DNA from: Patescibacteria group bacterium
Lineage (GTDB): Bacteria > Patescibacteriota > Patescibacteriia > UBA10025 > JAHIVO01
Direction of reading: 5' to 3'
NCBI GenBank assembly: GCA_049325535.1
Contig: JBMOKY010000001.1
Coordinates: forward strand, 299,386 to 363,385
DNA length: 64,000 nucleotides
The notes beneath the pieces were generated by a model that saw only the letters and a list, made by a program, of their open reading frames with translations, did no database searches and was not told where the DNA came from. Both the position numbers and the translations under genes were made by a program. This document shows, piece after piece, positions 319 through 45,483 of the stretch; the stretch's first letter is position 1; the number at the start of each line of letters is the position of its first letter.

Positions 319-1275
319 ATGGCTATCGTCACAAAAATTTTGAATCAAGGAAGCATCCGCAACGGTTCATTTACCGATTTGGAGGGCGGATCTCCCGCCT
401 GGGCTGACCTCGAGCACCCGACGGACCAGGAATTGACGCAGGTGGCTCGATTCGTGGGCATCGAACCGCAGGAGCTTCGGGAATACCTAGATCAGACGCA
501 GCGCCCGCTGGTGCACAATGTCGAGCACTATTCCATGATTATCGTCGCCGTTCCGGTGATGGTCGGATCGTTTGTCCGCAGCGCTCCGCTGGTCATTTTT
601 GTTTCAAAGAATCGACATGATTTCATCACCCTGCATGAGCAGCCGGTCCTGGCACTGCAGCGCATCGCTGGTTTTCCTTCGGAACGGATGGCGACCATGT
701 TCAAAGGCGGCATGACCCACATCTTATTCACCATGCTGGATGAGATCGTGGACACCTATTTTTCCACCATCGACACGCTCAGCGACCAGATCGAAAAAAT
801 CGAACAGCACATGTTTGATTACCGGGAAAGCAAACAGACCATGCAGCAAACATTCCGTACCAAAAAAAGCCTGATCTTCCTGCACAAAGCGCTGGTGGCA
901 AATCGTGACGTGGTGGCCGGCATCGAAAAAGAATACGCCGCTTTTCTGGAAAAGAAGCAGTTATCCGATTTTCGGGAATTAAATGGTAACATCGTCCAGT
1001 TGATTGAAATGGTGACTACCTACCGCGATATCTTGACATCGTCAATCGAGATCCACCTGTCCACCATTTCCAATAACCTCAACGTGACCATGAAACGCGT
1101 CACGTCCTGGGGCGCATTGATTCTGGTACCTAGTTTGATCGCTGGTATTTTTGGCATGAATTTCCGGGATATCCCGTTTTTGTATTCGCACTGGGGGTTT
1201 TGGCTATCGTTGGTGATGATGGTTGTCTCTGTATTTGTGCTCGCCCGGTATTTCAAACGGAAAGACTGGTTCTGA
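319..1275 (+). CDS. corA: CorA family Mg2+/Co2+ transporter
   Basis: 318 aa; C-terminal two TM helices with GMN signature (GIFGMNF); cytoplasmic N-domain. Confidence 0.9.
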   Translation: MAIVTKILNQGSIRNGSFTDLEGGSPAWADLEHPTDQELTQVARFVGIEPQELREYLDQTQRPLVHNVEHYSMIIVAVPVMVGSFVRSAPLVIFVSKNRHDFITLHEQPVLALQRIAGFPSERMATMFKGGMTHILFTMLDEIVDTYFSTIDTLSDQIEKIEQHMFDYRESKQTMQQTFRTKKSLIFLHKALVANRDVVAGIEKEYAAFLEKKQLSDFRELNGNIVQLIEMVTTYRDILTSSIEIHLSTISNNLNVTMKRVTSWGALILVPSLIAGIFGMNFRDIPFLYSHWGFWLSLVMMVVSVFVLARYFKRKDWF

Positions 1276-1279
1276 TTCT

Positions 1280-4200: not shown

Positions 4201-5404
4201 CCACGGACGGATAGCTGAACTGCCGGCGGAATATAAGCCTTTTACCCTTTCCCTGCAAAACGTAGAAATACAAATGGAAGCCGAAAAAATTTCTCATGAT
4301 TTTGACCAACTGCAATCAGAAATACTCAATGTGCTGGATGGGCGGAGCACTATCGAAACGCTGCGGGAGCGGGTCCAGGGCAGCCTGCAGACCGAGATTG
4401 ACCAGATCGAACAGTCGTTGATGAAAAAATCGGATAATCAGTTCATCCGTTCACGTCTCGAACAGCTGCGCATTATCGGTCAGGCGGTACAAGCCGCTGG
4501 CGACGCCGATTCCCTGATGGGCGCGTTGCTGGAGATCGACCTGAGTACAGGGAAAAAACTGGATATTTTTCCGGCAATCCGTGAGACGATACTCAGGCGG
4601 CTGATTGATAAAAATTATTCAGCTTTGCAGGCGGATCAATTGGCGGCGACACTACGGGGTGGGCTATCGGTTGAAGGGGTACTGCGTATGCTGACACTGC
4701 ATGATGATTTTATCAAAGATCACGTCCTCAATGTCAACCGTAAAAATGAGGAACACTACTGGTCGGATCAGACATGGGATAAGATACAGCGCGGCAGAAA
4801 GAGCAGTAAGCATATCAATCTGAGCAAGGCATTTGAGCCGCACATCGGCGTCCTCCGGGAAGCGTCGCGGAACATGACCGTCATCGAGCAGGGGAGCGCC
4901 CAGAAAATTGACGTGATTCCGGATCGGGGCCTGATCGGGGAGTTGTCCGGGTATCTGGCTGATGTGTGCTATACCGCAGAGACGAAAATGCTCGAGCGGT
5001 TTCCCAATGTTGTCCCCTTCAAATTTACTGCCCGCGACGCAGAGACCGGCGAAGCGGAATTCATCGGATCGGTATTGATTTTTGAATTATCGGATGCTGC
5101 CGGTGACCCGGTGATGCTCGTACGCGGATTTGACGTCCCCCATGAAGAAAAATACGATATTCCGAAATTTATGGAAAAGTTCATGGATCAATTGCAGTCA
5201 GTCGCCCGCCAGCGAGGCATCAAGAAGATTGTGCTACCGGGGATGACGGGCGCCATGAGTAACTACGCCATGACCAATCGCCATGTGGAGCAAGCCTACA
5301 AGCAGGACAAGCAAGCAGTGGGCCTGTCAGAGAAATTCGCGTTCAACGGGTATGATATAACTGATAATGTGTACGTGGCGCGTGATCTGAATAATTCTGC
5401 TTGA
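1280..5404 (+). CDS. very large (1375 aa) hypothetical cytoplasmic protein, N-terminal CxxC...H zinc-ribbon-like segment, otherwise helical/acidic, no TM
   Basis: Uninterrupted 4.1 kb ORF; ATG at 1280 (MTELHTTNACHYCGYPIEIGEHDW) chosen over track start 1223 which overlaps corA; no recognisable catalytic motifs. Confidence 0.7.
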   Translation: MTELHTTNACHYCGYPIEIGEHDWSLHPTDERPDQTDTAVDERGGHDENAAEDPFIALISQNRDRVAQLGAYSLELFRRKNLDAASQLLTEGLTETSDDGTISAEHRGERMQQAIQVLEAELSAIRTSIAEPLREGVEQIDDGYHKSEPLGIENLHYSLSVLMPQLQSLESRMTEVRRSLTSLTDASERYTSRVLQELGISDKNELDEKIWDLEAQTWQLRESMVGQWFHYFKRRGIEKEKKQLRALRQPGWSESFEQAKSAHRSMAYTEGDIARKLETLSHREIFSYFRSLVEEVNANYEESHRESQALPATAIDSINDDYIDRVVRPAITVAQQEHPREWISVRPEDIEQFLGVLKQSFDLTRDTQEGGDGDEPEKRERIMQAFQNFPEPLQNLRFPFTRKTGEARPNDHYDAIYEFLHDHIPRTRRTQAVKGLIDSYIQPFQDHARSLPEGSTEKYYLKNHIEYFNGYSGLERQLAGTTYEKTFIEHLDAQRWSAFVNNREMVEAFGAERIDEGTQFVEQLFRSKYLKDTGYSYSDHQRTWASLVEMGRVESAPYVVLGAYADLNARGGWKRHPGLADGTTRIIGGYISRFDSLDESGKAIPGMTELFDLIRSHPDSFAQESFYDRERGEEVKNPLFHETESALSTMIVYYLENGTDEEQLLAIRALENVSLCTDEIREWLCRHLALVHRDEYNTMPGCARRYVLEAVNRGDIAMAQALMENATGDQAASVLNESLSSGNLAGVAKIFELADRSQVEATDAAAQPSGDSGLSPELLQDLSQKIKAFIQEHPAGFVGQANRELYREVFGREPIDAFLDALPTDTDEKRNAFTHNQYDRATAFVQHMTASQDGRFSLDAEQWRYLTEYVKQFKLSKTPALYHHFVGLRKHVETGQPLTEEQLQTGIATEGQLVERFRSMRERTYGTDPILETGDFTKFDLELLSAVSGKSTHRFDTGRPSMEQIVADFQEARDHGRIAELPAEYKPFTLSLQNVEIQMEAEKISHDFDQLQSEILNVLDGRSTIETLRERVQGSLQTEIDQIEQSLMKKSDNQFIRSRLEQLRIIGQAVQAAGDADSLMGALLEIDLSTGKKLDIFPAIRETILRRLIDKNYSALQADQLAATLRGGLSVEGVLRMLTLHDDFIKDHVLNVNRKNEEHYWSDQTWDKIQRGRKSSKHINLSKAFEPHIGVLREASRNMTVIEQGSAQKIDVIPDRGLIGELSGYLADVCYTAETKMLERFPNVVPFKFTARDAETGEAEFIGSVLIFELSDAAGDPVMLVRGFDVPHEEKYDIPKFMEKFMDQLQSVARQRGIKKIVLPGMTGAMSNYAMTNRHVEQAYKQDKQAVGLSEKFAFNGYDITDNVYVARDLNNSA

Positions 5405-8588: not shown

Positions 8589-9131
8589 ATGCCATCTGTA
8601 CCGAATCAAAATCCTGTCCGCCGCGCACAAATTCAGCTGTGGCTTGGTCTGGGTGGAATTGTATTTATCGGCCTCGTGGTGGCGGTTTATTTCGTATTTG
8701 TCCGGGAGGCGACTGCGCCGACTACCACGGATACGGCAAATATAAATGCCAGTTTGACGGACGTAGAGGGGGACATTTTTCTGACTGATGCTACGCCGTC
8801 TGCTGGCAGCACCGTGACTTCCCTAGAATCGGTTTCAATAACTTATTCTGCGCCGATCAATCCGACGACGGTCACTATGGATACGTTTTATGTATTGCAG
8901 GGAGTAGATGAAAAAAGCCCAGGTTCCATTTCATTGAGTGACGATGGGAAAACAGCCACCTACCAACTGACTGATGCGATAGTAGCATCTGAGGACGGTT
9001 CAGTCACCGCTCTGACGGTGGTAGTGGATACGACGGGTATGCAGGGCACCGACGGTACCCCCGTGTATGTACCGGGTAGTACGGCCCAATGGAATGTGTA
9101 CGTGGCTAATCAACCCTACCTCGGGGATTAA
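8589..9131 (+). CDS. membrane-anchored protein with bacterial Ig-like (Big/SbsA-like) domain
   Basis: N-terminal TM; TVTSLESVSITYSAPINPTTV...TYQLTD pattern typical of Ig-like surface domains; extended -10 TGcTATACT upstream at about 8558. Confidence 0.6.
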   Translation: MPSVPNQNPVRRAQIQLWLGLGGIVFIGLVVAVYFVFVREATAPTTTDTANINASLTDVEGDIFLTDATPSAGSTVTSLESVSITYSAPINPTTVTMDTFYVLQGVDEKSPGSISLSDDGKTATYQLTDAIVASEDGSVTALTVVVDTTGMQGTDGTPVYVPGSTAQWNVYVANQPYLGD

Positions 9132-9144
9132 CATCTCAAACACT

Positions 9145-10107
9145 ATGGAGAATCTATCATCGAAACGCATGATATCTCCTCCGCCTCATACCCATCACGT
9201 CATCCTATGGCTCGTCTTGGTATTTATCACGGTAGTAGCGGTTGCGGCAGTTGCCTATGCGTATATCTTCCAGCCGACGGCGGAGGAGATGGACATCGCT
9301 GAATCGAGCATCGTCTGCGGTGACGGGATATGTACCGCCACTGAGCAGGAATGTATTCCGACTTTGTGCGGAGATGGTTCACCGAGCTGCCCTCAGTGCA
9401 CGAAATATTATTGCCCGGCTGATTGTGCCTATCCGGGATTTAATGACCAAAACGTGAATACCTCCACCACTGACGCGGAGGAATGGCTGACCTATACGAA
9501 TGATGAAATAGGCGTCAGTTTTGAATATCCCTCGTCATGGCAACCGGTGAACGAATCGCGCATCGAAGAAAGCGAATCTGACCAGGGCAGTCGGGTGCGT
9601 GTGGATTTTAGCGGTTCGCAAGGGGACAGCGGGTTTGACACCACTTTCCAGCTGCTCTATACCACTCCGGATTTTTCATCGGGTAGCGAACCGTGGCTGG
9701 GGGATCTGCTGGCGTCGCAGTATGACCAACACGGCATGTACGGTATCTGCACTCCCGCTGCTGATGATGAGCTGTATCTGTACCTCAAAGACGTACATCA
9801 TTGCGCTATCCGTGAGTGGGAGGGGCGCGCTACCGCCGAGTTTTTCACCCAGATCAACGGATTGGACGAAGCTGAAATAAGCTCGTTTGTGAAGGTGTTT
9901 GCATTTGAAACCGGAAACGAAACATACCCCCTGGCGCAGCTGGTAATGTATTTGCCGGAAGCAAATCCGGACAATGTGCCGGTAGCGGATACGGAAGCGG
10001 TCGAGGACATCTATGATGGCCTGCGCCTGGGCAGCTTGAATGCCGAAACCAACAAGCGAATTGCGGATTTCAGCATGATTCGTGAAAGTCTAACGGCAAT
10101 ACAATGA
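9145..10107 (+). CDS. membrane-anchored Cys-rich extracellular protein, paralog of 10104..11453
   Basis: ATG 9145 (MENLSSKR), TM helix, 12-Cys module (CGDGICTATEQECIPTLCGDGSPSCPQCTKYYCPADC) then TDAEEWLTYTNDEIGVSFEYPSSW motif; track start 9067 overlaps upstream gene. Confidence 0.6.
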   Translation: MENLSSKRMISPPPHTHHVILWLVLVFITVVAVAAVAYAYIFQPTAEEMDIAESSIVCGDGICTATEQECIPTLCGDGSPSCPQCTKYYCPADCAYPGFNDQNVNTSTTDAEEWLTYTNDEIGVSFEYPSSWQPVNESRIEESESDQGSRVRVDFSGSQGDSGFDTTFQLLYTTPDFSSGSEPWLGDLLASQYDQHGMYGICTPAADDELYLYLKDVHHCAIREWEGRATAEFFTQINGLDEAEISSFVKVFAFETGNETYPLAQLVMYLPEANPDNVPVADTEAVEDIYDGLRLGSLNAETNKRIADFSMIRESLTAIQ

Positions 10108-11453
10108 CACGTACCAACTACATACCGCTCACCGTAGTCACCGCTATCGCACTGGTGGCTGTTTTGATGCTGATGATCGCGGCGGTGTATGAACAGCACG
10201 CCTCTGATCCCGAGTCTGTTTCCAGTACGGCATCCAGCACCAAAGCCGCTTCAATATCTTGCGAGGAAATCAGCAGCCAGGCTGCGTGCGACGCTAGACC
10301 TGATTGCTATGCGGTGTATGATGCATGTCCATGCTACACGGCAAACAGCGCAGCGGGGAAATGCGGAGGAGAGCTGGATCAGTGCGAAGCCTGTGAGGAT
10401 GGCCGATTTACCCGATGCGCTGCAGGAGCGTGTGATACCATTCAGGGTTATTCAAACACCAACACGTATGCCGAAAGTACGGCGGTGGATACGTCGGATT
10501 GGCTGACGTATGAGAACGAGGAGTATCAGTACTCAATTCAATATCCCGCTACCTATAAGATTATTGAAAACGCAGATTCAAGCATTTCAATAGCGCCAAT
10601 AGATGGCAGCTACCCATATCCGCATATTTCTGTGGATACTACCCCATTGGAAGAAAAAATTACTGAGATAGTAGACGAATTTATTCGTAGGGAGACAATT
10701 TATGCTGGTACAATAGAGGGCGTAGCGGTGATTGAAAATATGGCCATCGGTGGTGAGGCGATCAATTATCTCTTTGAGCACAATCAATATACTTACCTTA
10801 TTCGAGGTGGAAATACTGAAGACAATCGCGCAATGTTTAACACGTTTAGCTTTCTTAATGACACCTCCGACTGGCTGACGTATGAGAATGAGGAGTATGG
10901 GTTTAGCTTTCAGTATCCGATTGAATGGGGCGCTGTCCAAGTTTCTGAAAAAGATTATAGGAATGACGAACGAAGTTATTATGAAGGGCGGGGAGTCAGT
11001 ATTACATTTGCAAACAACACAAAACCAAACATACGATTATCATCAAGTGATTATCGTGATTTTGCTTCACTCACTTCCTATAATGGTGGGGAGGATTTAG
11101 CGAAAGTGTGCACTTCACCTGGTATCGTCAACGACTTTTCTTATTGTATAAATAAAACGGTTGCAGGCCAAAGCACTTTTGATAGACTGCGCTTTGATGC
11201 GCCTGAATGCTCACCAATGTTTATTCGAGAAAGCTGGCTCAATATCGATTTGCCGGTTTATAAAAGCATTATCATCAGTTCAATATTATTTACCGGTGGG
11301 GGATGGGATTGTACCAGCGATGATGCTGCTGAATGGGACAGAATAACCAGTTCTGAATTACAAAGACTTATCAACAGAAATGACCTCACTCAGGATGAGA
11401 TGGCATTACTTCAGGGAATGGATATGGTCATTGAGACATTTCGCTTTCTGTAG
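10104..11453 (+). CDS. membrane-anchored Cys-rich extracellular protein with two TSDWLTYENEEY-x-S-x-QYP repeats
   Basis: ATGA overlap with upstream gene; TM; Cys module; motif repeated at aa about 130 and about 255. Confidence 0.65.
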   Translation: MTRTNYIPLTVVTAIALVAVLMLMIAAVYEQHASDPESVSSTASSTKAASISCEEISSQAACDARPDCYAVYDACPCYTANSAAGKCGGELDQCEACEDGRFTRCAAGACDTIQGYSNTNTYAESTAVDTSDWLTYENEEYQYSIQYPATYKIIENADSSISIAPIDGSYPYPHISVDTTPLEEKITEIVDEFIRRETIYAGTIEGVAVIENMAIGGEAINYLFEHNQYTYLIRGGNTEDNRAMFNTFSFLNDTSDWLTYENEEYGFSFQYPIEWGAVQVSEKDYRNDERSYYEGRGVSITFANNTKPNIRLSSSDYRDFASLTSYNGGEDLAKVCTSPGIVNDFSYCINKTVAGQSTFDRLRFDAPECSPMFIRESWLNIDLPVYKSIIISSILFTGGGWDCTSDDAAEWDRITSSELQRLINRNDLTQDEMALLQGMDMVIETFRFL

Positions 11454-30748: not shown

Positions 30749-32008
30749 TTACTGCGCGTCTGGTGAGACCGGGGCGGCGATACAGCAGGCGTGTTTTGGG
30801 TACTTCACACAGTTGACACTGGCGCAGCTGTTGGTGGTGCCGCAGCTGACTGCTTGGGTCAGCGTCATATCGCTGTATGGTTTGCCATTTTTGTCATAAA
30901 AATAGACGAACCATTCGTCATCCTGCAGCTGTTTGCCGGGCAGACAGAGGTTTTTCGTGCCGAGATCGCTGGTGACGGTGAGCGTAGCTTCGGGTAGTGT
31001 CGTGGTGTCACCGGTGGCATTGGTACCCAAAATAAATAGCGGTGCTCGGTGGCCCAATACGTCTGCTGCCATATCGGTAAATCCATCAGCGGTGTTGAAT
31101 AATCCCAGGACAGTCGCCCATGATTTTGCCATTACCAGATTTGAATACTGGCCGAGGTCTATTGTTCTATTGGCACTCACGGCGGTGAGGTCATTTGGCG
31201 CGTACCCTTTGGCGATTTGCGCCGCACAGTCCACAGTATTTACCCGGTGGAGCAGCGCCGCATCGGTATATACATTGCCAGCGTCAGACACATAATAGCG
31301 GGTTGCAGTACTTCCGGCACAGCCGGGTATGGTCGAATCGTACTGCCATTGGTTCTCGGTACAGATATAGCACCCGTTAATTTGACCCTCGGTACAGGTG
31401 TTGGTATTCACGTTGACTTGAGCGTGTGCGGTGGGAAGCCAGCGAGGAGCCTGGGACTCCGGAGCAACCGTGACTGAGGCGGTTGTTTTTTCCGGTATAC
31501 ACACCATGGTTGGGGTGCCGATATATACTTGTGCGTTCGCCGTCGGGATACCCGGAATGGCTTGCGCGGACGGGGCGTTGTTCACAATACCAAGAGAGAG
31601 GAGGGTGGCCGGGTGTGTTGTGGTGGTAAAATCAACCACGATGGCACGCGCTGTGGCACTGGGGCTGCCCGCAATATATTCATATGATCCATTGTCATCC
31701 GTATAGGCTCCAAACTGCGTGGTTATATTCCCACTGGCATCAGCTCCGCTGATGATGATGTCCGATGACGCATCCTCAACCCCAGCGCTTGGCGGGTTGC
31801 CTGAAACTTGCATGGTGTGTACCGCAGTCGCGTACAGCGGCTGGGCTGTCGACACCGGCGATTCTTCCGGTTCGGCGACCGTGCTCACCGATTGTGAGAT
31901 TGACATGATAAACCCCATGCCCACTGCAAACGCGCCGATCATGCCGGTGACGAGTAGGACGGCAGCGCGCGTATCAGTAGCAAGCTGGGTCTTGGTTGTT
32001 TGTTCCAT
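30749..32008 (-). CDS. membrane-anchored Cys-rich secreted hypothetical protein, paralog of 32171..33526
   Basis: N-terminal TM anchor, Thr/Ala/Gly-rich extracellular region, C-terminal Cys cluster (CIAAP, NCVKYPKHACC). Confidence 0.6.
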   Translation of the reverse strand: MEQTTKTQLATDTRAAVLLVTGMIGAFAVGMGFIMSISQSVSTVAEPEESPVSTAQPLYATAVHTMQVSGNPPSAGVEDASSDIIISGADASGNITTQFGAYTDDNGSYEYIAGSPSATARAIVVDFTTTTHPATLLSLGIVNNAPSAQAIPGIPTANAQVYIGTPTMVCIPEKTTASVTVAPESQAPRWLPTAHAQVNVNTNTCTEGQINGCYICTENQWQYDSTIPGCAGSTATRYYVSDAGNVYTDAALLHRVNTVDCAAQIAKGYAPNDLTAVSANRTIDLGQYSNLVMAKSWATVLGLFNTADGFTDMAADVLGHRAPLFILGTNATGDTTTLPEATLTVTSDLGTKNLCLPGKQLQDDEWFVYFYDKNGKPYSDMTLTQAVSCGTTNSCASVNCVKYPKHACCIAAPVSPDAQ

Positions 32009-32170: not shown

Positions 32171-33526
32171 CTAGGAGCAGGGAACAGGATTCTGGAGCAA
32201 ATTATCACTGTATGGCTTGCCATCCATATCGTAGAAATAATCGACATAACCCATGTCTTCGGTATCAAATACAGTCACGGTAGAGGCGGGTACGCACAGG
32301 CTGAGATTGCCCGCATCGCTTTCCAGGCTGATGAGCCGTTCGTCAGTTTGGATAATATCTCCCGTATCATTTTTCAAATGGACGATTAATGGGGACCGGC
32401 TATTGACGAGCCCGTTCCATTCGCCCGATTCAGAGCTGGTACTATCGGAAGCGAAGGTGCGCACTATGCCGTTATCTTTGATCAATTGTACGGAGAAGCC
32501 ATTTTTAGGTTCCGCAAGAAATGGTTGTGCTACGGTAGCCAGACTGATAGTCTGCGGGGAAAATGATCGGGCTACTATGCTGTGGCACGATTCACTGATT
32601 GCCTGATGTTGCAACAATGGGTCGGTATAGGGAGTGCCCAGCGTATCAAAGAAATACGATAGTGCGGGAGCCCTGCCCAGTACAGCTGTCTCGGGAATGC
32701 AGAGCGTCTGGACTCCGGCAAATGTTTCGTATTTTATTGTCCGCGCGGGGAATGTTACATCATTTTCGTTGCTGTGGAAAAAGATTTCCAATGGCGATCG
32801 TGACACTTCCTGGGAATTTGTATTGTCTGATCGGAAAACATCTTCGTCAAAGCGGTAGTGGAATTGTTGGACGCCATTGTGCTCAAAAGCAATGGTCAGT
32901 ATTGAAGCGGTCAGGTAGGGGTAAAACGTGTTTGGTGCCACATGATAGGCTATGCCTGGATTGTAAGCTCTTTGCTTTACATCCATACAGTCGGTCAGGG
33001 CGGGCTCGCTCAGATCATATGAACCATAGGCGTTCCCGAGGGCATCGAACCAGAGAAACTGATGATTCGTATTTCCCGGGGCACAGACGGTATTGGTTAT
33101 CTGGCCATTGGTCGTGATAGTGGCCAAATAGGCTGGCTCGCTATTGTAGGGAACGTGTTCACGGGCGATTGCCAGTCGGTATTTAGTGGCATACGCCGCT
33201 CCGTCGTCGTAGGTACCATCAACGAATCGGCCGAGTGGTTCATAGTAGCTGGGGGAATGACTGGCATCCGTGGCATAGAGAGCTAGACTGGTGTTTTGAT
33301 GGGCAGCCGTAGTCAGTCCGCCACTGATGATATCCATCACTGTCAGCGGTTTTTTGATAATCAATATTTGCGGTGGTTGGTCAATGAGATCAAGCCGAAG
33401 CAGCGCCATGGCGAGAGTCGCACCGACGGCAAAGGCACTCATCATGCCAATACCTAAAATAATCCGTGTTTTCGTGTCCACGGCCTGGGTCGTAGCGGTC
33501 TGCGTGAGGGTAGTTTGGCCCTTCAT
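32171..33526 (-). CDS. membrane-anchored secreted hypothetical protein, paralog of 30749..32008
   Basis: Same N-terminal architecture; conserved upstream TTTTCTTAyCTAAGyATAGCAyAAAAAG block. Confidence 0.6.
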   Translation of the reverse strand: MKGQTTLTQTATTQAVDTKTRIILGIGMMSAFAVGATLAMALLRLDLIDQPPQILIIKKPLTVMDIISGGLTTAAHQNTSLALYATDASHSPSYYEPLGRFVDGTYDDGAAYATKYRLAIAREHVPYNSEPAYLATITTNGQITNTVCAPGNTNHQFLWFDALGNAYGSYDLSEPALTDCMDVKQRAYNPGIAYHVAPNTFYPYLTASILTIAFEHNGVQQFHYRFDEDVFRSDNTNSQEVSRSPLEIFFHSNENDVTFPARTIKYETFAGVQTLCIPETAVLGRAPALSYFFDTLGTPYTDPLLQHQAISESCHSIVARSFSPQTISLATVAQPFLAEPKNGFSVQLIKDNGIVRTFASDSTSSESGEWNGLVNSRSPLIVHLKNDTGDIIQTDERLISLESDAGNLSLCVPASTVTVFDTEDMGYVDYFYDMDGKPYSDNLLQNPVPCS

Positions 33527-37611: not shown

Positions 37612-38580
37612 TTATGCGTCACGGTGTCCAGCCGCTTGGATATCTATCTCTTCGCTGCGCCACTCGGACATGACTTCTTCCACGTCCGCGGGTTCGACGG
37701 TTAGTCCGGCTTGGTTTTTTTGCTGTTTGATGGCGCGGAGCTTTACCAGTGACGCGGCTTCGTCCATCAGATCGATGGCTTTATCAGGAAAATGCCGGTC
37801 ACGGATATTTTTATCAGCTAGTTCGACGGATCGAGCCAGTGCGGCGTCGCTGATTTTCAGCTGGTGGTGCGTTTCATAACGCGACCGGACACCTTTGAGA
37901 ATCGCCAGCGTTTGCTCTGGCGTGGCCTCCTCGACCATCACCGGCTGAAACCGGCGCTCCAGCGTGGTGTCTTTTTCCACGTAGGCGGTATAGTCATCGA
38001 GGGTGGTGGCACCGATTACCTGCAGATCGCCTCGAGCCAGCGCTGGTTTGAGGATATCAGCCGCATCGATAGCGCCGGTGGCCTGGCCAGCCTCGGCCAG
38101 CGTGTGAATCTCGTCGATAAATAATATGATAGATCGTTTGGCCGCTATGATTTCGTCCACCAGGGATTTGAGGCGTTTTTCGAATTCACCGCGGTATTTG
38201 GTGCCGGCCACCAGTCCGCTCAGGTCGAGGGCCAGCAGTTTTTTATCGAGCAGCATACTGGTGACACTGCCGTCCGCTATTTTTTGGGCCAGGCCTTCCA
38301 CGATGGCAGTTTTGCCGACACCGGATTTACCGATGAGAACGGGATTATTTTTGGTACGGCGCGATAAAATTTGAATGACGCGTTCCACTTCGTGTTCCCG
38401 GCCAATGACGGGATCAAGCTGGTTTTGGTGGGCGAGCGCGGTCAGGTCTTTTGAATACAATTTGAGCACGCCGATATTTGATCGGGATTTGATATTTTCT
38501 CGGTATAACCAAAAGATAACCACCCCAAGCACAAGGAGGATAATCAGCAGCGATGTGGATGCTGGTTGCAAGTCGAACAT
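37612..38580 (-). CDS. membrane-anchored AAA+ protein homologous to ClpA/ClpB/ClpC D1 module only
   Basis: TM helix then LDPVIGREHEVERVIQILSRRTKNNPVLIGKSGVGKTAIVEGLAQ...ILFIDEIHTL...LKPALARGDLQVIGATT...ERRFQPV; ends before middle domain/D2. Confidence 0.8.
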   Translation of the reverse strand: MFDLQPASTSLLIILLVLGVVIFWLYRENIKSRSNIGVLKLYSKDLTALAHQNQLDPVIGREHEVERVIQILSRRTKNNPVLIGKSGVGKTAIVEGLAQKIADGSVTSMLLDKKLLALDLSGLVAGTKYRGEFEKRLKSLVDEIIAAKRSIILFIDEIHTLAEAGQATGAIDAADILKPALARGDLQVIGATTLDDYTAYVEKDTTLERRFQPVMVEEATPEQTLAILKGVRSRYETHHQLKISDAALARSVELADKNIRDRHFPDKAIDLMDEAASLVKLRAIKQQKNQAGLTVEPADVEEVMSEWRSEEIDIQAAGHRDA

Positions 38581-38733
38581 ATGGTTTTTGTTTTGTATAT
38601 GTAATGAGTATAGCATTTTTTTTCAGTTTTGGCAAGGCGTTACAATAAAGAAAAAAGCGCCTCAGAAGTTTTAGTAAACTGAGAGGCGCCTTTTATTTGG
38701 CAGGTGCCAGATCGATCAAATTCATCGGTAGTA

Positions 38734-39213: not shown

Positions 39214-39469
39214 TGAATCCTCCTTATTACAGTATTTTGTTTTCGGTGTTATGGGAGCACTTGTTGCCAAATAATATGACAATGAGCACAAAGAACTAAA
39301 CATCCTATCATGGCTGTCAAGAAATGTCAATACCTAGGGGGTGGTAATCATAGCCATTTTCTAACTATGTGTATAACTTTTCTAGTAAATCGGAATGATT
39401 TGATTTTTCAAATCTTGATTATTTACAGAAAAAATGATATAATATGTACATTCATACGTAACGGCCAGT

Positions 39470-40006
39470 ATGCCTGACATACAAAAAGTACAACCAGAAA
39501 ATCAGAGTCCTGAGGTAGAGGACATTTTTGGATTTGATGAGGCTGCCACTGAGCGTCCTGTCCCACAGCCGGAGCAACCGCCGGTGCCTGACACCCTACC
39601 GGAGCGTGAGGCGATGCCGGAGTTGGCTCCGGAAACGATGCCCGAACAGCAGCCTGAGTCAGAACAGTCGCGTCTGCAGTATGCACCACCTGCACCACCT
39701 GTTCAGACGCAGCCAGTGAGCAAAGATCCACAGGTGGAGCATATTGAAAATATTTTAGCAGAGCATTTGGAGGGGATATTCGTCAATATGTCGCCGCAGG
39801 AGCAGATGGCTTTTAAAGTAAAAGGCGAGGAGACGGCCACGAAAATCAATGTGTTATTGCAGGAGACCAAGATTAAAGTTCGCTCTATCCTGGATCTGAT
39901 CCGCGAGTGGCTCCAGCTGATTCCCGGGGTGAATAGATTTTTCGTGGAGCAGGAAGCGAAGATAAAGACCGATCGTCTGCTCAATCTTCGCGAGCAACAG
40001 AAGTAG
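39470..40006 (+). CDS. Pro/Glu-rich acidic hypothetical protein upstream of coupling-ATPase gene
   Basis: Low-complexity PEQPPVPD repeats then helical C-term. Confidence 0.5.
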   Translation: MPDIQKVQPENQSPEVEDIFGFDEAATERPVPQPEQPPVPDTLPEREAMPELAPETMPEQQPESEQSRLQYAPPAPPVQTQPVSKDPQVEHIENILAEHLEGIFVNMSPQEQMAFKVKGEETATKINVLLQETKIKVRSILDLIREWLQLIPGVNRFFVEQEAKIKTDRLLNLREQQK

Positions 40007-40027
40007 CACCATAAGTTTTCGCGCGGC

Positions 40028-42571
40028 ATGACGCCCCAGACCACTATCGTACAATCACTCGGTGATTTTTTTACCCGGCTGCTGGGGAGCGGAAGTTTTG
40101 CGGTACTCCTGGCAGGTGTTTCGGTCCTGGTGACTGTCATCGCCGGATTTTTTTTGCTGCGTCGGCATCTGCGGAGCGAAAAAGCGTTACCGCAGGCACT
40201 GCAAAAAGTAGTCCTGCTGGTGACCGTACCGAAGGAATCCGAGATGGCAGACGGAGAGGGTCGGAGCATGCCTGAGGTACAGGAACTGTTGGCGCAGGCC
40301 GAAGCCTGGTTTTCCACGCTGGGCGGCATGCGAGCGCAGCGCGGCATGACCGCGGCGGTGGCTGGCCGTACCGATCATTTTTCTCTGGAGCTGGTCGCGG
40401 CCCACGGGTTGATTTCATTTTATGTGGTGGTGCCGCGCTACCTCCGGGACTACATGGAGCAGCAAATTCACGCGCAGTATCCGCGGGCGAATATCGATCC
40501 GGTAGAGGATTTTAATATATTTACCCCGCAGAGTGTGGTGGTGGGCACAACCTTGCAATGCAAGAAAGAATATATATTTCCCATCCGCACCTATCGCCAG
40601 CTGGAGGTAGACCCGCTGCAATCCATCACGAATGTATTGGCCAAGGTGCCTGCTGGTGAGAGCGCGGTGATCCAATACGTCGTGCGCTCCGCCCGCGGCG
40701 AATGGCATGCATATGGGGCACGGGTAGCCACCCAGATCCATCAGGGCAAGACACTGAAAGAAGCGATTGGTCGGCACGGCGCCAGTGCGATCATCGGGGA
40801 GGTATTTCGTACATTTTTTCCGAAAAAAGAGCGATCGACTGAGTACCAAACCCCCCACACTCCCTCGGCCCGCGATGAGGAAATCGCTAAAAGTATAGAG
40901 GAAAAAACATCAAAAGCCGGGATGGACGTGAATATCCGCATTATCGTCTCGGCCCAGTCCGAGGCTCGGGCACGGGCACATCTGACCAATATCGTGGATG
41001 CCTTCAGTCAATATAACATGTACGAATACGGCAATGGGTTCATGCGTAAAGATGCTTTTCGGCGTGACGCGTTGATCCATGATTATATTTATCGTCGGTT
41101 CACTGACAAACACGCGGCACTGCTCAATGCCGAAGAAATGGCGTCAGTGTTTCATTTCCCACTGCCAATCACGGAGACGCCAAATATTCGGTGGCTGTCA
41201 TCTCGGAAAGCGCCCGCACCACTGAACGTGCCGAGTGAGGGGGTCATCCTCGGTCATAGTCCCTATCGCGGTCAGGACCAGGACATCCGTATCTCCCGCA
41301 GCGACCGCCGACGGCATGTGTATGTCATCGGTAAATCAGGCGTCGGTAAATCGGTACTGCTGTCGAATATGATCATTCAGGATATTCAGAATGGCGAAGG
41401 GGTCGGCGTGGTCGACCCGCATGGTGATTTGGTCAGTACGGTGCTGGAACACATCCCGCGGGAGCGGGCTGACGACGTCATTTATTTCAATCCGTCCGAT
41501 ATGGATCGACCGGTCGGGCTGAATATGCTGGAGGCGCGTACACCCGAGGAAAAAGATTTTGCGGTGCAGGAAATGGTGGCGATATTCTATAAATTGTTTC
41601 CGCCGGAAATGATCGGCCCGATGTTTGAGCATAACATGCGCAATGTCATGCTCACCCTGATGGAGGACGAGGAACACCCGGGAACCATAGCTGAGATTCC
41701 GCGCATGTTCACCGATCCGGCATTTCAAAAATACAAGCTCACCAAAGTCAAGGATCCGGTGGTGCGTTCGTTTTGGGAAAAGGAAATGGCCAAGACATCC
41801 GATTTTCACAAATCAGAAATGCTCGGCTACCTCATTTCAAAAGTAGGGCGGTTTGTAGAGAATGCGATGATGCGAAATATCATTGGCCAGCCGAAGTCCG
41901 GTTTTGATTTTGATGACGTGATGAATAACAAAAAGATACTCCTGGTCAATCTAGCCAAAGGTACTACCGGTGAGGTCAATAGCAATCTGCTCGGCCTGAT
42001 CATCGTGTCAAAATTGCAAATGGCGGCCATGAAACGGGTGGCCATGCCCGAGGACCAACGCAACGATTTTTATCTCTATTTGGATGAATTTCAAAATTTC
42101 GTGACCGACAGCATTGCCACCATATTGTCCGAAGCCCGGAAATACCGGCTCGACCTGACTATGGCCCATCAATACACGAGCCAGCTGGTCCGCGACAATA
42201 ACGATACACGTATCCGCGACGCCGTATTCGGGAATGCCGGCACTATGATTATGTTCCGGGTCGGCGTGGAGGACGCGGAAACATTTGCACGGGAGTTTGA
42301 CCCGGTATTCAACCAATACGACATTATTAATGTCGACATGTACACGGCACTCGTAAAATTATTGATCAACAATACCGCTTCAAAGCCGTTTAGCATGCAG
42401 ACCTATCCACCCCAACCAGGCGACCCAGCACTGGCTCGTCAGATCATTGAGCTATCCCGCATGAAGTTTGGTCGCGATCGGGGAGCTATCGAGCAGGAAG
42501 TCATGGAGAAATCTAAGCTTGGCGCACCGGCTCCTCGTCAGGGTCCGGTCATCGGCCAGCGAAGCCTCTAA
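40028..42571 (+). CDS. TraG/TraD/VirD4-like type IV coupling protein family ATPase, N-terminal TM
   Basis: Walker A VIGKSGVGKS at about aa 440; Walker B YLYLDEFQNF; LTMAHQYTSQL and FGNAGTMIMFRVG resemble T4CP C-terminal (TrwB/TraG-D_C) motifs. Confidence 0.65.
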   Translation: MTPQTTIVQSLGDFFTRLLGSGSFAVLLAGVSVLVTVIAGFFLLRRHLRSEKALPQALQKVVLLVTVPKESEMADGEGRSMPEVQELLAQAEAWFSTLGGMRAQRGMTAAVAGRTDHFSLELVAAHGLISFYVVVPRYLRDYMEQQIHAQYPRANIDPVEDFNIFTPQSVVVGTTLQCKKEYIFPIRTYRQLEVDPLQSITNVLAKVPAGESAVIQYVVRSARGEWHAYGARVATQIHQGKTLKEAIGRHGASAIIGEVFRTFFPKKERSTEYQTPHTPSARDEEIAKSIEEKTSKAGMDVNIRIIVSAQSEARARAHLTNIVDAFSQYNMYEYGNGFMRKDAFRRDALIHDYIYRRFTDKHAALLNAEEMASVFHFPLPITETPNIRWLSSRKAPAPLNVPSEGVILGHSPYRGQDQDIRISRSDRRRHVYVIGKSGVGKSVLLSNMIIQDIQNGEGVGVVDPHGDLVSTVLEHIPRERADDVIYFNPSDMDRPVGLNMLEARTPEEKDFAVQEMVAIFYKLFPPEMIGPMFEHNMRNVMLTLMEDEEHPGTIAEIPRMFTDPAFQKYKLTKVKDPVVRSFWEKEMAKTSDFHKSEMLGYLISKVGRFVENAMMRNIIGQPKSGFDFDDVMNNKKILLVNLAKGTTGEVNSNLLGLIIVSKLQMAAMKRVAMPEDQRNDFYLYLDEFQNFVTDSIATILSEARKYRLDLTMAHQYTSQLVRDNNDTRIRDAVFGNAGTMIMFRVGVEDAETFAREFDPVFNQYDIINVDMYTALVKLLINNTASKPFSMQTYPPQPGDPALARQIIELSRMKFGRDRGAIEQEVMEKSKLGAPAPRQGPVIGQRSL

Positions 42572-42577
42572 CGCTAT

Positions 42578-43108
42578 ATGTCAGGCACGACCAGTTCGCT
42601 ACTGCTGATGGTTGGGGTAGTTGTTATTTTTGGCACCGCGGCCTACGCCGGGATCAAGGCGGCACCCTGGCTCCCGGTATTCAAGCGGGATATCAAACGG
42701 ATCGTCACTCTGGCGAATCTGAAGCAAAACGACGTGGCCTATGATCTAGGCTCGGGTGACGGACGTGTTGTATTGGCATTGGCTCATAATTCGTCAGCAA
42801 CCATTTGCGGGTATGAGGTATCATTTGCTCTGTACCTGTGGTCATGGCTGAAAGTAGTATTGCTGGGATTGTCGCGTCAGGTGGAGATTCGTTTTGGGGA
42901 TTTCCTCTCGCGTGATTTGAGTCAGGCTACCGTTATTTTTTGTTTCCTCACCCCGAAAGCCATGGCCAAACTCGGACCGAAATTTAGAGCCGAGCTCCGC
43001 CCAGGGACACGGGTGATTTCTTACAGTTTTGCCATACCCGGCTGGGTGCCTGCCGCGGTCAGCCGACCTGCAGCTGATCGGATTCCCATTTATACCTATA
43101 TCTGTTGA
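42578..43108 (+). CDS. small class-I SAM-dependent methyltransferase with N-terminal TM
   Basis: Motif I VAYDLGSGDGRVVLALA. Confidence 0.65.
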   Translation: MSGTTSSLLLMVGVVVIFGTAAYAGIKAAPWLPVFKRDIKRIVTLANLKQNDVAYDLGSGDGRVVLALAHNSSATICGYEVSFALYLWSWLKVVLLGLSRQVEIRFGDFLSRDLSQATVIFCFLTPKAMAKLGPKFRAELRPGTRVISYSFAIPGWVPAAVSRPAADRIPIYTYIC

Positions 43109-43197
43109 TATCTGTTGACGAGTGGATTGAAATACGGTACACTGGAAACGCAAAAAGTCTCATAAAACAAACGATAACACATACACAATTAGCGCGT

Positions 43198-43839
43198 ATG
43201 GCGGCAAAACAAAACAAATTGCAACAGATAAAAAAACTGGTGGAAGCAGCTCATGTCTCGCTGGAGAGTGCGCGGCAGCTTTTGGTGCAGGTAGCGGGGG
43301 ACGATGGCGCTGATCTCGAAGTCGCGTCAAAAGCACATGCCGTCGGTAGTGTGTCCGCTTCGGAAAATGAAAAGATCATCGAAGGGGTATTTGACGGGCA
43401 AAATATGATCGGCCCGGACGGTAAGCAGTACAGCGTTCCCGCAAACTACGCTTCGAAGTCAAAACTGGTGGTGGGCGATACGCTGAAATTGACCATCACT
43501 GCTGACGGATCATTCATGTATAAGCAAATTGGACCTGTCGAGCGTCAACGGGTGGTGGGGCTGCTGGCGAAAGATGAGACAACTGACGAATACCGCGTGG
43601 TGGTGGGCGAGACGGCGTACAAAGTGCTGCTGGCTAGCGTCACCTATTTTAAAGGGGAACAGGGGGACGAGGTCGTGTTGCTCGTGCCGAAAGACAAAGA
43701 ATCAGTCTGGGGAGCAGTGGAAAACATCATCAAAGTGCACGACGGGCAGGCTTCAGCTACTGCGGCAGCTCCCGCTCAATTGGCGGCGGAAGCCACGACG
43801 CCAACACCCGCCGTTGAAGATATCGAGGATTTAGGGTAG
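43198..43839 (+). CDS. hypothetical protein with OB/KOW-like repeats
   Basis: ATG 43198; two VVGDTLKL / VVVGETAYKV beta-rich segments; Ala-rich tail. Confidence 0.5.
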   Translation: MAAKQNKLQQIKKLVEAAHVSLESARQLLVQVAGDDGADLEVASKAHAVGSVSASENEKIIEGVFDGQNMIGPDGKQYSVPANYASKSKLVVGDTLKLTITADGSFMYKQIGPVERQRVVGLLAKDETTDEYRVVVGETAYKVLLASVTYFKGEQGDEVVLLVPKDKESVWGAVENIIKVHDGQASATAAAPAQLAAEATTPTPAVEDIEDLG

Positions 43840-43923
43840 TTTTTACACTGACGGTTGCCAAATACAAATCGCTTGTATACAATGAATTCGCACGGTTGAT
43901 CCCAAATTGCGATTTTTTTATAT

Positions 43924-45483
43924 ATGCCCGCCCTCTATCGAACGTATCGGCCAAAGGATTTCAGTGAGGTCGTCGGTCAGGAGCCTATCATGGCTACCCT
44001 GCAGCACGAACTCACGCATAATCGGGTAGCGCATGCCTACTTGTTTTCCGGTCCGCGGGGAGTGGGCAAAACCACTACCGCCCGGCTGCTGGCTATGGCC
44101 GTCAATACGAAGGATATTCGCGGGGAACAGCGCGAGCGGACGGTAGCCGATATTTTATCGGGAAAATCGATTGACGTCATTGAAATCGACGCTGCGTCAC
44201 ATACGGGGGTTGATAATGTTCGGGAAAACATCATCGAAAACGCTCGGTTTACCCCGCAGCAATTGCCGTATAAGGTTTTTATCATCGACGAAGTGCACAT
44301 GCTGTCATCGAGTGCTTTTAATGCTCTCCTCAAAACACTCGAGGAACCGCCGGCGCATGTTATTTTTATTCTGGCGACGACGGAGATTCATCGGGTGCCG
44401 GAGACCATCATTTCCCGGTGTCAGCGTTTTGATTTCAAGCGGGTCGGTATACCCGAACTGGTCGCGCGGCTCGAGAAACTGGCTGCGGCAGAAAAGGTGC
44501 ATGTCGAACCAGAAATTCTTCAGGCAGTGGCTCGCCGTGCCGATGGCTCGGTACGTGACGCAGAAGTACTTTTGGGGCAGCTGTTGTCGCTGGGCGCAAA
44601 AAATATTACCGCTGAACAGGCGTCACTGGTACTGCCGCGGTCAAATATTCAGTCGGTGGTACAATTATTCCTGGCGCTGGCGGCTCGGGACGCGCGGCAG
44701 GGGATTTTGATTGTTCATCAGCTGATGGATGATGGGGTCCACTTGCAGGACTTTACCAAGGAGCTGATTGAGTTTTTACGAACCATATTATTGGCGCGGG
44801 CCCATGCATTTGACGATGAATTGAATGCGTATGGACTGGCGCCGGATCAGCGACAGCAGGTGGAGGGTATTTTAGAATCTATGTCCGTGCCGCAGCTGCT
44901 CCATATCATAGAAACTTTCGTGGTTGCAGAAAAGGCATTGCGGTCGAGCACCATACCACAATTGCCGTTGGAGCTGGCTATCGTGACCGTGGCACATGCC
45001 GACGACACCGATGAGCAGCACCCAGATGTACCGCCACCGCCCGCTGAGCCGCCGACTACACCAGAGCGCCCGGCACCGTCGTCGCGTCCCCGTCCGAAGA
45101 ACGATGACACAACCGTTCATCGGACCACTAGCGACGGTTCACTGGAAGCAATCGTCCAGCAGTGGCCGACCATCGTGGATACGGTCAGCACGACCCACCG
45201 GTCTATTGCCATGTCTCTGAAAGTCGGCGTGCCGTATAAACGCACGAATGACACGCTCACGATCGCATTTCAGCATGCGTTTCATGCAGAACGGATTGCT
45301 CAGCCGACGGTACGGGCGGCGCTCCAAGATATCATAGCGACATTGACCGGTTTGACGGTGCATATAAGCACGGTTGTCCTGGAGCCCGACGAATTTGATA
45401 AAGCGCAGCCGGCAGGAACGGGAGATGACGCCGTGCGCGACGCTCTGGAAGTGTTTGGCTCCGAGGCCGTGGCGGAGGATTGA
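43924..45483 (+). CDS. dnaX: DNA polymerase III subunit gamma/tau
   Basis: Walker A GPRGVGKTT, FIIDEVHMLS, sensor motifs, SRC region. Confidence 0.9.
   Translation: MPALYRTYRPKDFSEVVGQEPIMATLQHELTHNRVAHAYLFSGPRGVGKTTTARLLAMAVNTKDIRGEQRERTVADILSGKSIDVIEIDAASHTGVDNVRENIIENARFTPQQLPYKVFIIDEVHMLSSSAFNALLKTLEEPPAHVIFILATTEIHRVPETIISRCQRFDFKRVGIPELVARLEKLAAAEKVHVEPEILQAVARRADGSVRDAEVLLGQLLSLGAKNITAEQASLVLPRSNIQSVVQLFLALAARDARQGILIVHQLMDDGVHLQDFTKELIEFLRTILLARAHAFDDELNAYGLAPDQRQQVEGILESMSVPQLLHIIETFVVAEKALRSSTIPQLPLELAIVTVAHADDTDEQHPDVPPPPAEPPTTPERPAPSSRPRPKNDDTTVHRTTSDGSLEAIVQQWPTIVDTVSTTHRSIAMSLKVGVPYKRTNDTLTIAFQHAFHAERIAQPTVRAALQDIIATLTGLTVHISTVVLEPDEFDKAQPAGTGDDAVRDALEVFGSEAVAED

Follow-up and report, generated by a model that had tools for sequence, protein, structure and literature searches.

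A chromosomal VirD4-family coupling ATPase of the Patescibacteria with a predicted VirB4-like N-terminal fold and a small upstream partner gene

Type IV coupling proteins (T4CPs) of the VirD4 family have been proposed to assemble in general with auxiliary proteins (PMC12857230), and the way in which they dock onto the secretion channel has been called undefined in a 2025 review of type IV secretion systems (T4SSs). In the Patescibacteria, epibionts that account for a large part of the diversity of bacteria, the T4SS goes back to the MPF-FATA class of monoderms and comes without relaxases (PMC12102498). It was the first shown to be essential for its carrier, yet it was described without a recognisable coupling protein. 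The presence and dispersal of T4CP homologues in these bacteria are already known: 5,713 were counted in 2,918 of 3,035 genomes (96%), only 148 of them near virB4, VirB4 itself was found in 2,417 of the 3,035 genomes (80%), and the authors stated that exaptation of the T4CP homologues 'cannot be ruled out' (PMC12102498). Here we describe one family of such homologues from a four-gene cluster (positions 39470-43839) in a 64,000-nt stretch of contig JBMOKY010000001.1 from a Patescibacteria group bacterium (assembly GCA_049325535.1); this whole stretch is called the window below, and by protein matches its closest named relatives are Candidatus Kerfeldbacteria. All four open reading frames (ORFs) of the cluster are on the + strand with dnaX downstream of them, just as an earlier note on this DNA had described them, and the gaps of 21 and 6 nt on either side of the ATPase gene are likewise as it gave them.

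The second gene of the cluster (40028-42571, + strand) encodes an 847-aa membrane-anchored ATPase that is a VirD4-family T4CP, in a long form of monoderm type, as judged by sequence profiles and by matches to solved structures. Three T4CP families of Pfam exceed their cut-offs within residues ~420-755, namely PF02534 T4SS-DNA_transf with 38.0 bits (cut-off 20.1), PF10412 TrwB_AAD_bind with 36.8 bits (20.5), spanning residues 422-754, and PF12696 TraG-D_C with 25.9 bits (22). Among 50 relatives, TrwB_AAD_bind and TraG-D_C match all 50 and T4SS-DNA_transf matches 44. When the profile of the family was compared with all PDB sequences, TrwB (E 6e-7) and DotL were the best matches and no VirB4 chain was matched, and NCBI labels the family 'type IV secretion system DNA-binding domain-containing protein'. 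The NCBIfam TraD/VirD4 equivalogs match up to E 7e-16, far under the equivalog cut-offs. Other P-loop families fit less well: DUF87 is borderline (23.9 bits against a cut-off of 23.2, over residues 427-508 only), FtsK_SpoIIIE stays below threshold (14.3 bits against 24), and NF040819 HerA reaches only E 0.07. Neither the HAS-barrel of HerA nor the alpha and gamma domains of FtsK accompany the motor, and no DNA-binding element such as the FtsK gamma domain was detected in the protein. A HerA/FtsK identity was rejected on these profile scores and on the conservation and synteny described below. In sequence, the motor resembles T4CPs more than it does VirB4, HerA or FtsK, which supports the coupling-protein assignment made in the earlier note.

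The protein combines an N-terminal anchor with a nucleotide-binding domain in which Walker A and B are intact. A hydropathy scan places a single transmembrane (TM) helix at residues 26-44 (40103-40159, + strand), which is part of one long helix (22-58) in the structural model. The C-terminal flank of the TM segment is net +4, the family medians being -1 for the N-flank and +3 for the C-flank, and this positive C-flank predicts an N-out/C-in topology with all of the ATPase after the helix in the cytoplasm. The Walker A motif GKSGVGKS (residues 435-442; 41330-41353, + strand) and the Walker B region LDEFQNF (residues 685-691; 42080-42100, + strand), both of which the earlier note had picked out together with the single TM helix, contain G435, G438, G440 and K441 and D686, E687, F688, Q689 and N690, respectively, all invariant in 50 sequences. 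Between the strands at 484-487 and 637-641 the model has helices only; this all-helical insertion (residues ~506-633; 41543-41926, + strand) would correspond by its position to the all-alpha domain of a T4CP, and a similar helical bundle is also present in the C-terminal domain of VirB4.

The region between anchor and motor, which had been taken for a spacer of roughly 400 aa, is predicted to be a confidently folded alpha/beta domain, DUF8128 (PF26449, from precomputed annotation; residues 59-409, 40202-41254, + strand). With a pLDDT of 84.5 and a pTM of 0.76, the AlphaFold2 model of the whole protein is confident; it shows repeated beta-beta-alpha units at residues ~60-410, and the model of residues 59-409 alone reaches pLDDT 84.6 and pTM 0.83. 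In PDB-based fold comparisons the full-length model scored 29.2 with the VirB4 C-terminal domain (4ag5), 27.5 with TrwB, 27.5 with DptH-C, 24.3 with HerA, 23.6 with DotL and 22.3 with Cag-beta. When residues 59-409 were searched with Foldseek, the top 13 matches were all chains of TrwK (E 7e-6 to 1e-3, probability 1.00), at modest TM-scores of 0.41-0.45; VirB4/TrwK was the only strong match, and no HerA or FtsK structure was matched. As modelled, DUF8128 therefore resembles the N-terminal domain of VirB4, at the level of the fold only. An exhaustive search with the domain returned 1,947 representative clusters, and in all of the best 150 it is N-terminal. Some DUF8128 proteins are as long as 1,000-2,000 aa, and the six long members that were checked all have the same T4CP-type P-loop directly after the domain. 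Walker A thus comes late in the ATPase because a folded domain like that of VirB4 precedes the motor: its late position had been described correctly, but it is no oddity caused by a spacer, being common to the T4CPs with DUF8128 on monoderm and archaeal plasmids.

This long-form architecture is not specific to the candidate phyla radiation (CPR). A tblastn search of 72,556 plasmids found relatives of the ATPase in 522 records, over query residues ~118-824 with 22-28% identity and E values down to about 1e-59; the genera represented include Bacillus (287), Streptomyces (68), Clostridium (20) and Lactobacillus (12), besides haloarchaea and Sulfolobus. On a linear plasmid of Embleya sp. NBC_00896 (325 kb), the 812-aa homologue WP_331738717.1 (BLASTP E 1e-69, 27% identity, collinear over 143-815) is encoded between a VirB4 (AAA_10, TraC_F_IV, P-loop_TraG) and a Replic_Relax protein, with PrgI and an NlpC/P60 hydrolase nearby. 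On the Bacillus subtilis plasmid CP120602 (65 kb), the 913-aa homologue WEZ26732.1 ('DUF87 domain-containing protein'; E 7e-37, 24% identity) lies within a locus of TcpC, TcpD and TcpE-type genes. The N-domain profile of the family matches both proteins. The plasmid homologues are collinear with the ATPase and lie in conjugation modules, and the one from Embleya matches the motor profile; the sequence evidence thus identifies proteins built of TM helix, DUF8128 and T4CP motor as the coupling proteins of one set of conjugation systems in monoderms and archaea. Such a link fits the published MPF-FATA origin of the Patescibacteria T4SS (PMC12102498). Linkage to relaxase and/or T4SS genes, which a T4CP does not strictly require, is seen for the plasmid homologues but not for the Patescibacteria gene in the window or in the annotated close loci. 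None of the Patescibacteria partner families discussed below was found beside the plasmid T4CPs examined. We also observed that MOB-suite types 361 of the 522 plasmids with a T4CP relative as 'non-mobilizable', including the 65-kb Bacillus and the 325-kb Embleya plasmids, and standard mobility typing may miss this class of conjugation module.

Given the VirB4-like fold, it is conceivable that the ATPase is functionally a second VirB4-type assembly ATPase and merely caught by T4CP profiles. The N-domain strongly matches no other fold, and Walker A at ~435 of ~850 residues fits the VirB4 layout, with TIGR00929 aligning residues 430-451 to positions 439-460 of its 792. However, this Walker A stretch is all that the VirB4 profiles match (TIGR00929, E 1e-3), and neither CagE_TrbE_VirB nor TraC_F_IV is among the top families in 50 members of the ATPase family. 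The Embleya plasmid provides a direct comparison: with the motor-domain profile of the family, its T4CP reaches 227 bits and the true VirB4 adjoining it 15.8 bits, and the N-domain profile does not match that VirB4 at all. The plasmid homologue moreover coexists with a separate VirB4 and adjoins a relaxase-type gene, which is the position of a T4CP, and the Patescibacteria possess a distinct VirB4 clade of their own that is encoded elsewhere (PMC12102498). The ATPase of the window has no VirB4 motor profile and is not encoded with VirB3, VirB6 or VirB8-type genes. We consider a VirB4-type function improbable.

Within the Patescibacteria, a large-database search with the ATPase gave more than 2,800 matches, the best 120 of which are full-length with 56-80% identity and come from Kerfeld-, Uhr-, Komeili-, Kuenen- and other Patescibacteria groups; Falkow-, Magasanik- and Buchananbacteria are found among the genome loci. 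In 25 genome pairs that allowed every gene to be compared, the median identity of the ATPase was 58.7%, compared to 43.9% for DnaX in the same pairs, with the ATPase higher in 25/25; its motor half had a median of 70.6% and its N-domain of 46.3%. Synteny was counted in one close set of loci from 80 related species and in a second set of 80 divergent metagenome loci. In the close set, every ORF within 6 kb was clustered without preselection and the recurrent families were annotated; in the divergent set, the neighbours were clustered. Besides the cluster genes, the annotated recurrent neighbours in the close set are all housekeeping genes, that is cysS (40), corA (37), dus (11), prfA (10), prmC (10), rpmA (9) and dnaX, which is downstream in 46 of the 80 loci; no T4SS, relaxase or integrase gene is among them. 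The window itself is ordinary chromosome, with hrcA, grpE, dnaK, dnaJ, cysS, dnaX, guaB, guaA, purA and purB-type genes and an even GC content. No T4SS, relaxase or integrase gene was found in its 64 kb, and the only RNAs that Rfam and tRNA scans detected in it are tRNA-Gln and tRNA-Pro, neither of which has to do with the cluster.

Such a setting bears on the idea that the cluster is the remnant of an integrated conjugative element and its T4CP a decaying mobile-element gene. The closest relatives outside the Patescibacteria are indeed plasmid-borne T4CPs. The reading frame is intact, however, the catalytic motifs are all invariant, and full-length identity remains at 56-80% across many lineages, in a conserved chromosomal synteny and with native GC content; neither an integrase or relaxase gene nor repeats or island borders flanked by tRNA genes were detected. 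Conservation and synteny effectively refute this idea, and we give it next to no credence.

A dedicated, fast-evolving small gene is the most constant neighbour of the ATPase. In the window it is the first gene of the cluster (39470-40006, + strand), 21 nt from the ATPase gene, and it encodes a 178-aa protein that is acidic and Pro-rich, as had been noted before: it has 32 D/E against 18 K/R residues and 22 Pro, of which 19 fall within residues 1-85, and lacks a TM segment. Its N-terminal half is acidic, Pro/Glu-rich, of low complexity and poorly conserved. The C-terminal half is conserved and helical and ends in W-L-x-x-I-P-G-V-N-K/R-F-F-L-E-Q-E-A-K-I-K-T-D; the invariant residues include W147, L148, P152, G153, N155, F158, Q161, E162, K164-K166 and D168. 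The gene is directly upstream of the ATPase on the same strand in 74 of the 80 close species, mostly with gaps of -4 to +27 nt, and most of the 6 exceptions are loci truncated at that end, so that the arrangement is far beyond chance. The best 120 of 240 homologues are all 135-226 aa long, the named ones being a 'hypothetical protein' of Patescibacteria, and no match was found in Pfam, NCBIfam, PDB or PADLOC. Thus, the linkage that the earlier note assumed between the ATPase and its partners does hold in relatives, but it is near-universal for the 178-aa gene only; the methyltransferase gene is restricted to some lineages and the fourth gene goes with dnaX, as described below.

The upstream position is occupied by different genes in different lineages. 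In the divergent branch (the 80 metagenome loci, with 37-52% identity to a distant member), a partner of the 178-aa type is recognisable in 8 loci only, and a small same-strand ORF ends at the ATPase start in 61/80. These ORFs belong to at least four families. With unrelated families upstream in different lineages, the constant feature is a small, fast-evolving upstream gene, which, judging from its position, would encode a lineage-specific auxiliary subunit. Two apparent leads were discarded. An hhalign link between upstream families turned out to be circular, since members of the 178-aa family were in the target set, and its probability fell to 0.1% once these were removed. A natural fusion of partner and ATPase in a Candidatus Kerfeldbacteria contig (JACPUP010000068.1, 5428-8505 of locus L041; a 1,025-aa ORF) was rejected as evidence: it is likely a sequencing or assembly error, since there is no other fusion among the listed partner homologues and an acidic domain before an N-out helix is topologically implausible. 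In the window, the partner and ATPase genes are in the same frame, with TAG and 21 nt between them.

We propose that the Patescibacteria T4CP and its upstream acidic partner form a domesticated two-gene module that serves a T4SS encoded elsewhere, the ATPase gene being chromosomal, vertically inherited, under very strong purifying selection and detached from relaxase and virB4. The role that we infer here for the module has, in our estimate, about even chances of being correct. In this proposal, the ATPase would assemble as a membrane-anchored hexamer. Since the N-domains of VirB4 proteins form dimers, are embedded in the membrane and make contact with VirB3 and VirB8 (PMC12857230), the VirB4-like DUF8128 may likewise mediate oligomerisation or docking to membrane partners. 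The partner would bind the ATPase via its conserved C-terminal helix as a lineage-specific adaptor or regulator, comparable to CagZ/CagF or DotM/N/Y/Z, and ATP hydrolysis would hand a non-relaxase substrate, either protein or nucleic acid, to the Patescibacteria T4SS channel. The earlier note had brought up DNA uptake or host interaction as possible roles.

Several points weigh against this proposal. No T4SS gene was found in the 64-kb window or among the annotated recurrent neighbours of the close 80 loci. T4CP homologues occur in more genomes than VirB4 (96% versus 80%), which fits at least a partial independence from the T4SS, although incompleteness of metagenome-assembled genomes (MAGs) could explain part of the difference. 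In Southlakia epibionticum the T4SS is essential and a distant t4cp homologue, not necessarily of the DUF8128 type, is non-essential (PMC12102498; PMC10633639). Binding between partner and ATPase is proposed from gene position. The upstream partner families have no mutual homology (hhalign probability <1%), and because none is detectable between lineages, their common role is likewise deduced from position. Finally, common ancestry and not a common function may lie behind the synteny of the methyltransferase gene, the gene for the 213-aa protein and dnaX.

Some of these points would suit a T4SS-independent translocase. Here, an exapted hexamer, alone or with other machinery (e.g. ComEC with type IV pili, or the division apparatus), would pump DNA for uptake, export or segregation, with the small partner as plug or adaptor. 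In the window and in the loci examined, no T4SS gene was ever found close to the ATPase gene, T4CP homologues outnumber VirB4 by genomes (2,918 versus 2,417 of 3,035) in a survey whose authors leave exaptation open (PMC12102498), and the t4cp homologue of Southlakia is dispensable despite an essential T4SS. Conservation beyond that of DnaX is what would be expected of a core cellular function, the dnaX synteny is recurrent (46/80 loci), and the motor belongs to the FtsK/HerA/TrwB superfamily of DNA pumps. The weak beta-barrel matches of the neighbouring 213-aa protein, moreover, include MazE/AbrB, a DNA-binding fold. However, no DNA-binding element of the FtsK gamma type was detected, the closest full-length relatives outside the Patescibacteria are all in conjugation modules beside VirB4, and the VirB4-like N-domain suggests docking to membrane partners of the T4SS type. 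The gap in genome counts could come from incomplete MAGs, and dnaX, whose synteny may carry no functional meaning, has its own promoter-like site. A translocase of this kind seems to us rather unlikely, if a serious contender.

A broader interpretation goes beyond the two-gene module. DUF8128-type T4CPs might represent a surviving stage between VirB4 and VirD4, in which the VirB4 N-domain was kept. In the Patescibacteria, with a small and rapidly diversifying acidic partner, such a protein might have become a universal chromosomal machine that works outside conjugation and perhaps even independently of the T4SS, e.g. a motor for nucleic acid or protein between epibiont and host. We regard this as doubtful. 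If it were true, the VirB4-like N-domain would point to docking of T4CPs on the channel through contacts of the VirB3/VirB8 type.

The third gene of the cluster (42578-43108, + strand; 176 aa) starts 6 nt after the ATPase gene and encodes a membrane-anchored class I methyltransferase, in agreement with the earlier description. The protein has a TM segment at residues 8-26, and by its sequence it is clearly homologous to aKMT4, a crenarchaeal DOT1-like protein-lysine methyltransferase: residues 28-164 align with PDB entries 5fa8 and 5jwj (E about 1e-22, 84 bits), and NCBIfam NF041081 matches with E 1.5e-22 and 80 bits, compared to an equivalog cut-off of 200. Another close PDB match, 5bxy, was deposited as an RNA methyltransferase. 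The gene is downstream of the ATPase in 32 of the 80 close species and absent from 48/80, which makes it a lineage-restricted syntenic neighbour that may modify a membrane-proximal protein.

The pairing of an ATPase with a methyltransferase raises the question of anti-phage defence, in a system related to MADS (methylation-associated defence) or to those of HerA type. PADLOC matches the two adjacent genes to mad8 (ATPase, E 1e-15, 56 bits) and mad2 (methyltransferase, E 1.6e-10), MADS being an eight-gene operon (mad1-mad8) with an N6-DNA methyltransferase (bioRxiv 10.1101/2023.03.30.534895). However, the other six mad genes are absent here and no nuclease is present, the methyltransferase matches aKMT4 far better (84 bits) and is missing from more than half of the loci, and an ATPase that is near-universal, in housekeeping synteny and conserved beyond DnaX is the opposite of a patchy defence island with fast turnover. 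A role in defence is very improbable, and a MADS identity was rejected, the resemblance being at the level of domains only and the set of eight genes incomplete. The mad8 match in itself suggests that mad8 is a T4CP/HerA-like P-loop protein.

The fourth gene (43198-43839, + strand) encodes an acidic 213-aa protein of a very large unannotated Patescibacteria family and ends 84 nt before dnaX (43924-45483, + strand; 519 aa), which encodes the clamp-loader tau/gamma subunit (Pfam DNA_pol3_delta2, E 1.9e-36) and is the syntenic context of the cluster. Read as the longest ORF, the fourth gene would run from TTG 43105 to 43839 and give 244 aa; the overlap with the methyltransferase gene that the earlier note reported is an artefact of that start. 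ATG 43198 is backed by orthologue consensus, by homologue lengths of ~180-220 aa and by independent calls of 212-213 aa, and a homologue with 99% identity has 212 aa. It is thus almost certainly this ATG, and not TTG 43105, where the gene starts, which leaves an 89-nt gap and no overlap. The family has at least 8,000 homologues, all scored candidates being significant, with no Pfam domain in the 120 listed, and its core is almost invariant (EGVFDGQNM.GPDGK.YSVPANYASKSKLVEGD.LKLTI) and predicted to be beta-rich. For the protein described earlier as 'OB-like' we found only weak, sub-threshold matches to small beta-barrels (UPF1-1B in 27/41 members and MazE/AbrB in 21/41) and nothing significant in PDB, Pfam, NCBIfam or PADLOC. 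The gene for the 213-aa protein occurs in 53 of the 80 close loci and stays beside dnaX when insertions part it from the ATPase (e.g. loci L002, L052 and L062); in several divergent loci it comes directly after the ATPase. It is probably a unit of its own that goes together with dnaX, and this constant position suggests a replication-related role.

Promoter-like sites fit such a division. One precedes the first gene (39415-39443, + strand; TTGATT, a 17-nt spacer and a TG-extended TATAAT, with 10/12 consensus matches), a weaker one lies before the fourth gene within the 89-nt gap (43115-43143), and a third precedes dnaX (43855-43883; 10/12), all three being consensus matches only. Their placement suggests that the first three genes are a co-transcribed core. 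The earlier note knew of no operon with this set of partners, and no description of the operon, of PF26449/DUF8128 or of the partners is found in the searchable literature. As far as our literature searches reach, the fold relationship of DUF8128 with the VirB4 N-domain, the link to plasmid T4CPs and the conserved small partner appear to be new.

Other genes of the window were noted in passing. Upstream of the cluster, on the - strand (37612-38616), is a gene whose product has 334 aa, or 322 aa in an independent gene call. The only ATPase domain of this protein is a ClpA/ClpB-D1-like AAA+ module with AAA_lid_9, and its N-terminus carries a hydrophobic segment. The protein resembles a membrane-anchored, truncated Clp-type ATPase, and 22/80 related species keep such a gene 1.5-3 kb upstream of the coupling ATPase, likewise on the opposite strand. 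Directly downstream of a CorA-like gene, a 1,393-aa ORF (1223-5404, + strand) has no Pfam match at E <= 0.001 and, on inspection, no obvious TM segment or repeats. Two overlapping genes (9067-10107 and 10104-11453, + strand) encode Cys-rich proteins with N-terminal hydrophobic segments that have in common the repeated motif 'DWLTYxNxEyxxSxxYP', their sole database signal being a sub-threshold PsbP_2 match. Adjacent genes at 30749-32008 (419 aa) and 32171-33526 (451 aa) on the - strand each encode a protein with an N-terminal hydrophobic segment and no Pfam match; the two have a similar terminal '...FYDxxGKPYSD...' motif and may be paralogous surface proteins. The 451-aa gene is missing from one contig of the same species (L165).

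Of the many scattered T4CP homologues of the Patescibacteria, one family can now be seen as a core gene that is conserved beyond the clamp loader. A fold, that of the VirB4 N-domain as predicted by modelling, can be given to DUF8128, and the family is tied to the T4CPs of Gram-positive and archaeal conjugative plasmids. These results offer handles for genetics in cultivable Saccharibacteria and for structural work on the docking of T4CPs to the channel.

Comparison with known systems places the ATPase closest to the VirD4-family T4CPs (TrwB of R388, VirD4 of Ti, DotL, Cag-beta), with which it has in common the N-terminal anchor, the FtsK/HerA-superfamily motor with Walker A and B and, as modelled, a helical insertion, and the three Pfam families above cut-off. 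TrwB and VirD4 have two TM helices. In contrast, the ATPase has one, followed by the 350-residue DUF8128 between anchor and motor, and it does not reach the TraD/VirD4 equivalog cut-offs of NCBIfam; its gene is chromosomal, housekeeping-like, very highly conserved and without relaxase or T4SS genes nearby. With the long-form plasmid T4CPs of Embleya and B. subtilis (812-913 aa), which are similar to it in length, it is collinear in DUF8128 and motor. The plasmid proteins, however, are only 22-28% identical and sit with VirB4, PrgI, TcpC/D/E, Replic_Relax and cell-wall hydrolases. VirB4 (TrwK of R388; that of Thermoanaerobacter pseudethanolicus) has a similar two-domain layout with Walker A near 435, but profile similarity to it does not extend beyond the Walker motifs, and the ATPase has a TM helix of its own, is not encoded with VirB3, VirB6 and VirB8 and, in plasmids, coexists with a separate VirB4. 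The 176-aa methyltransferase is like aKMT4 (5fa8, 5jwj) in residues 28-164 and in its NF041081 match, and differs from it by an added N-terminal TM helix and a score below the equivalog cut-off. As a small acidic protein whose gene is tightly coupled to that of the ATPase, the 178-aa partner recalls the auxiliaries of other T4CPs (CagZ/CagF with Cag-beta; DotM/N/Y/Z and IcmS/W with DotL; TraM with TraD). Although it has no sequence similarity to any of them, gene position suggests that it may be their analogue.

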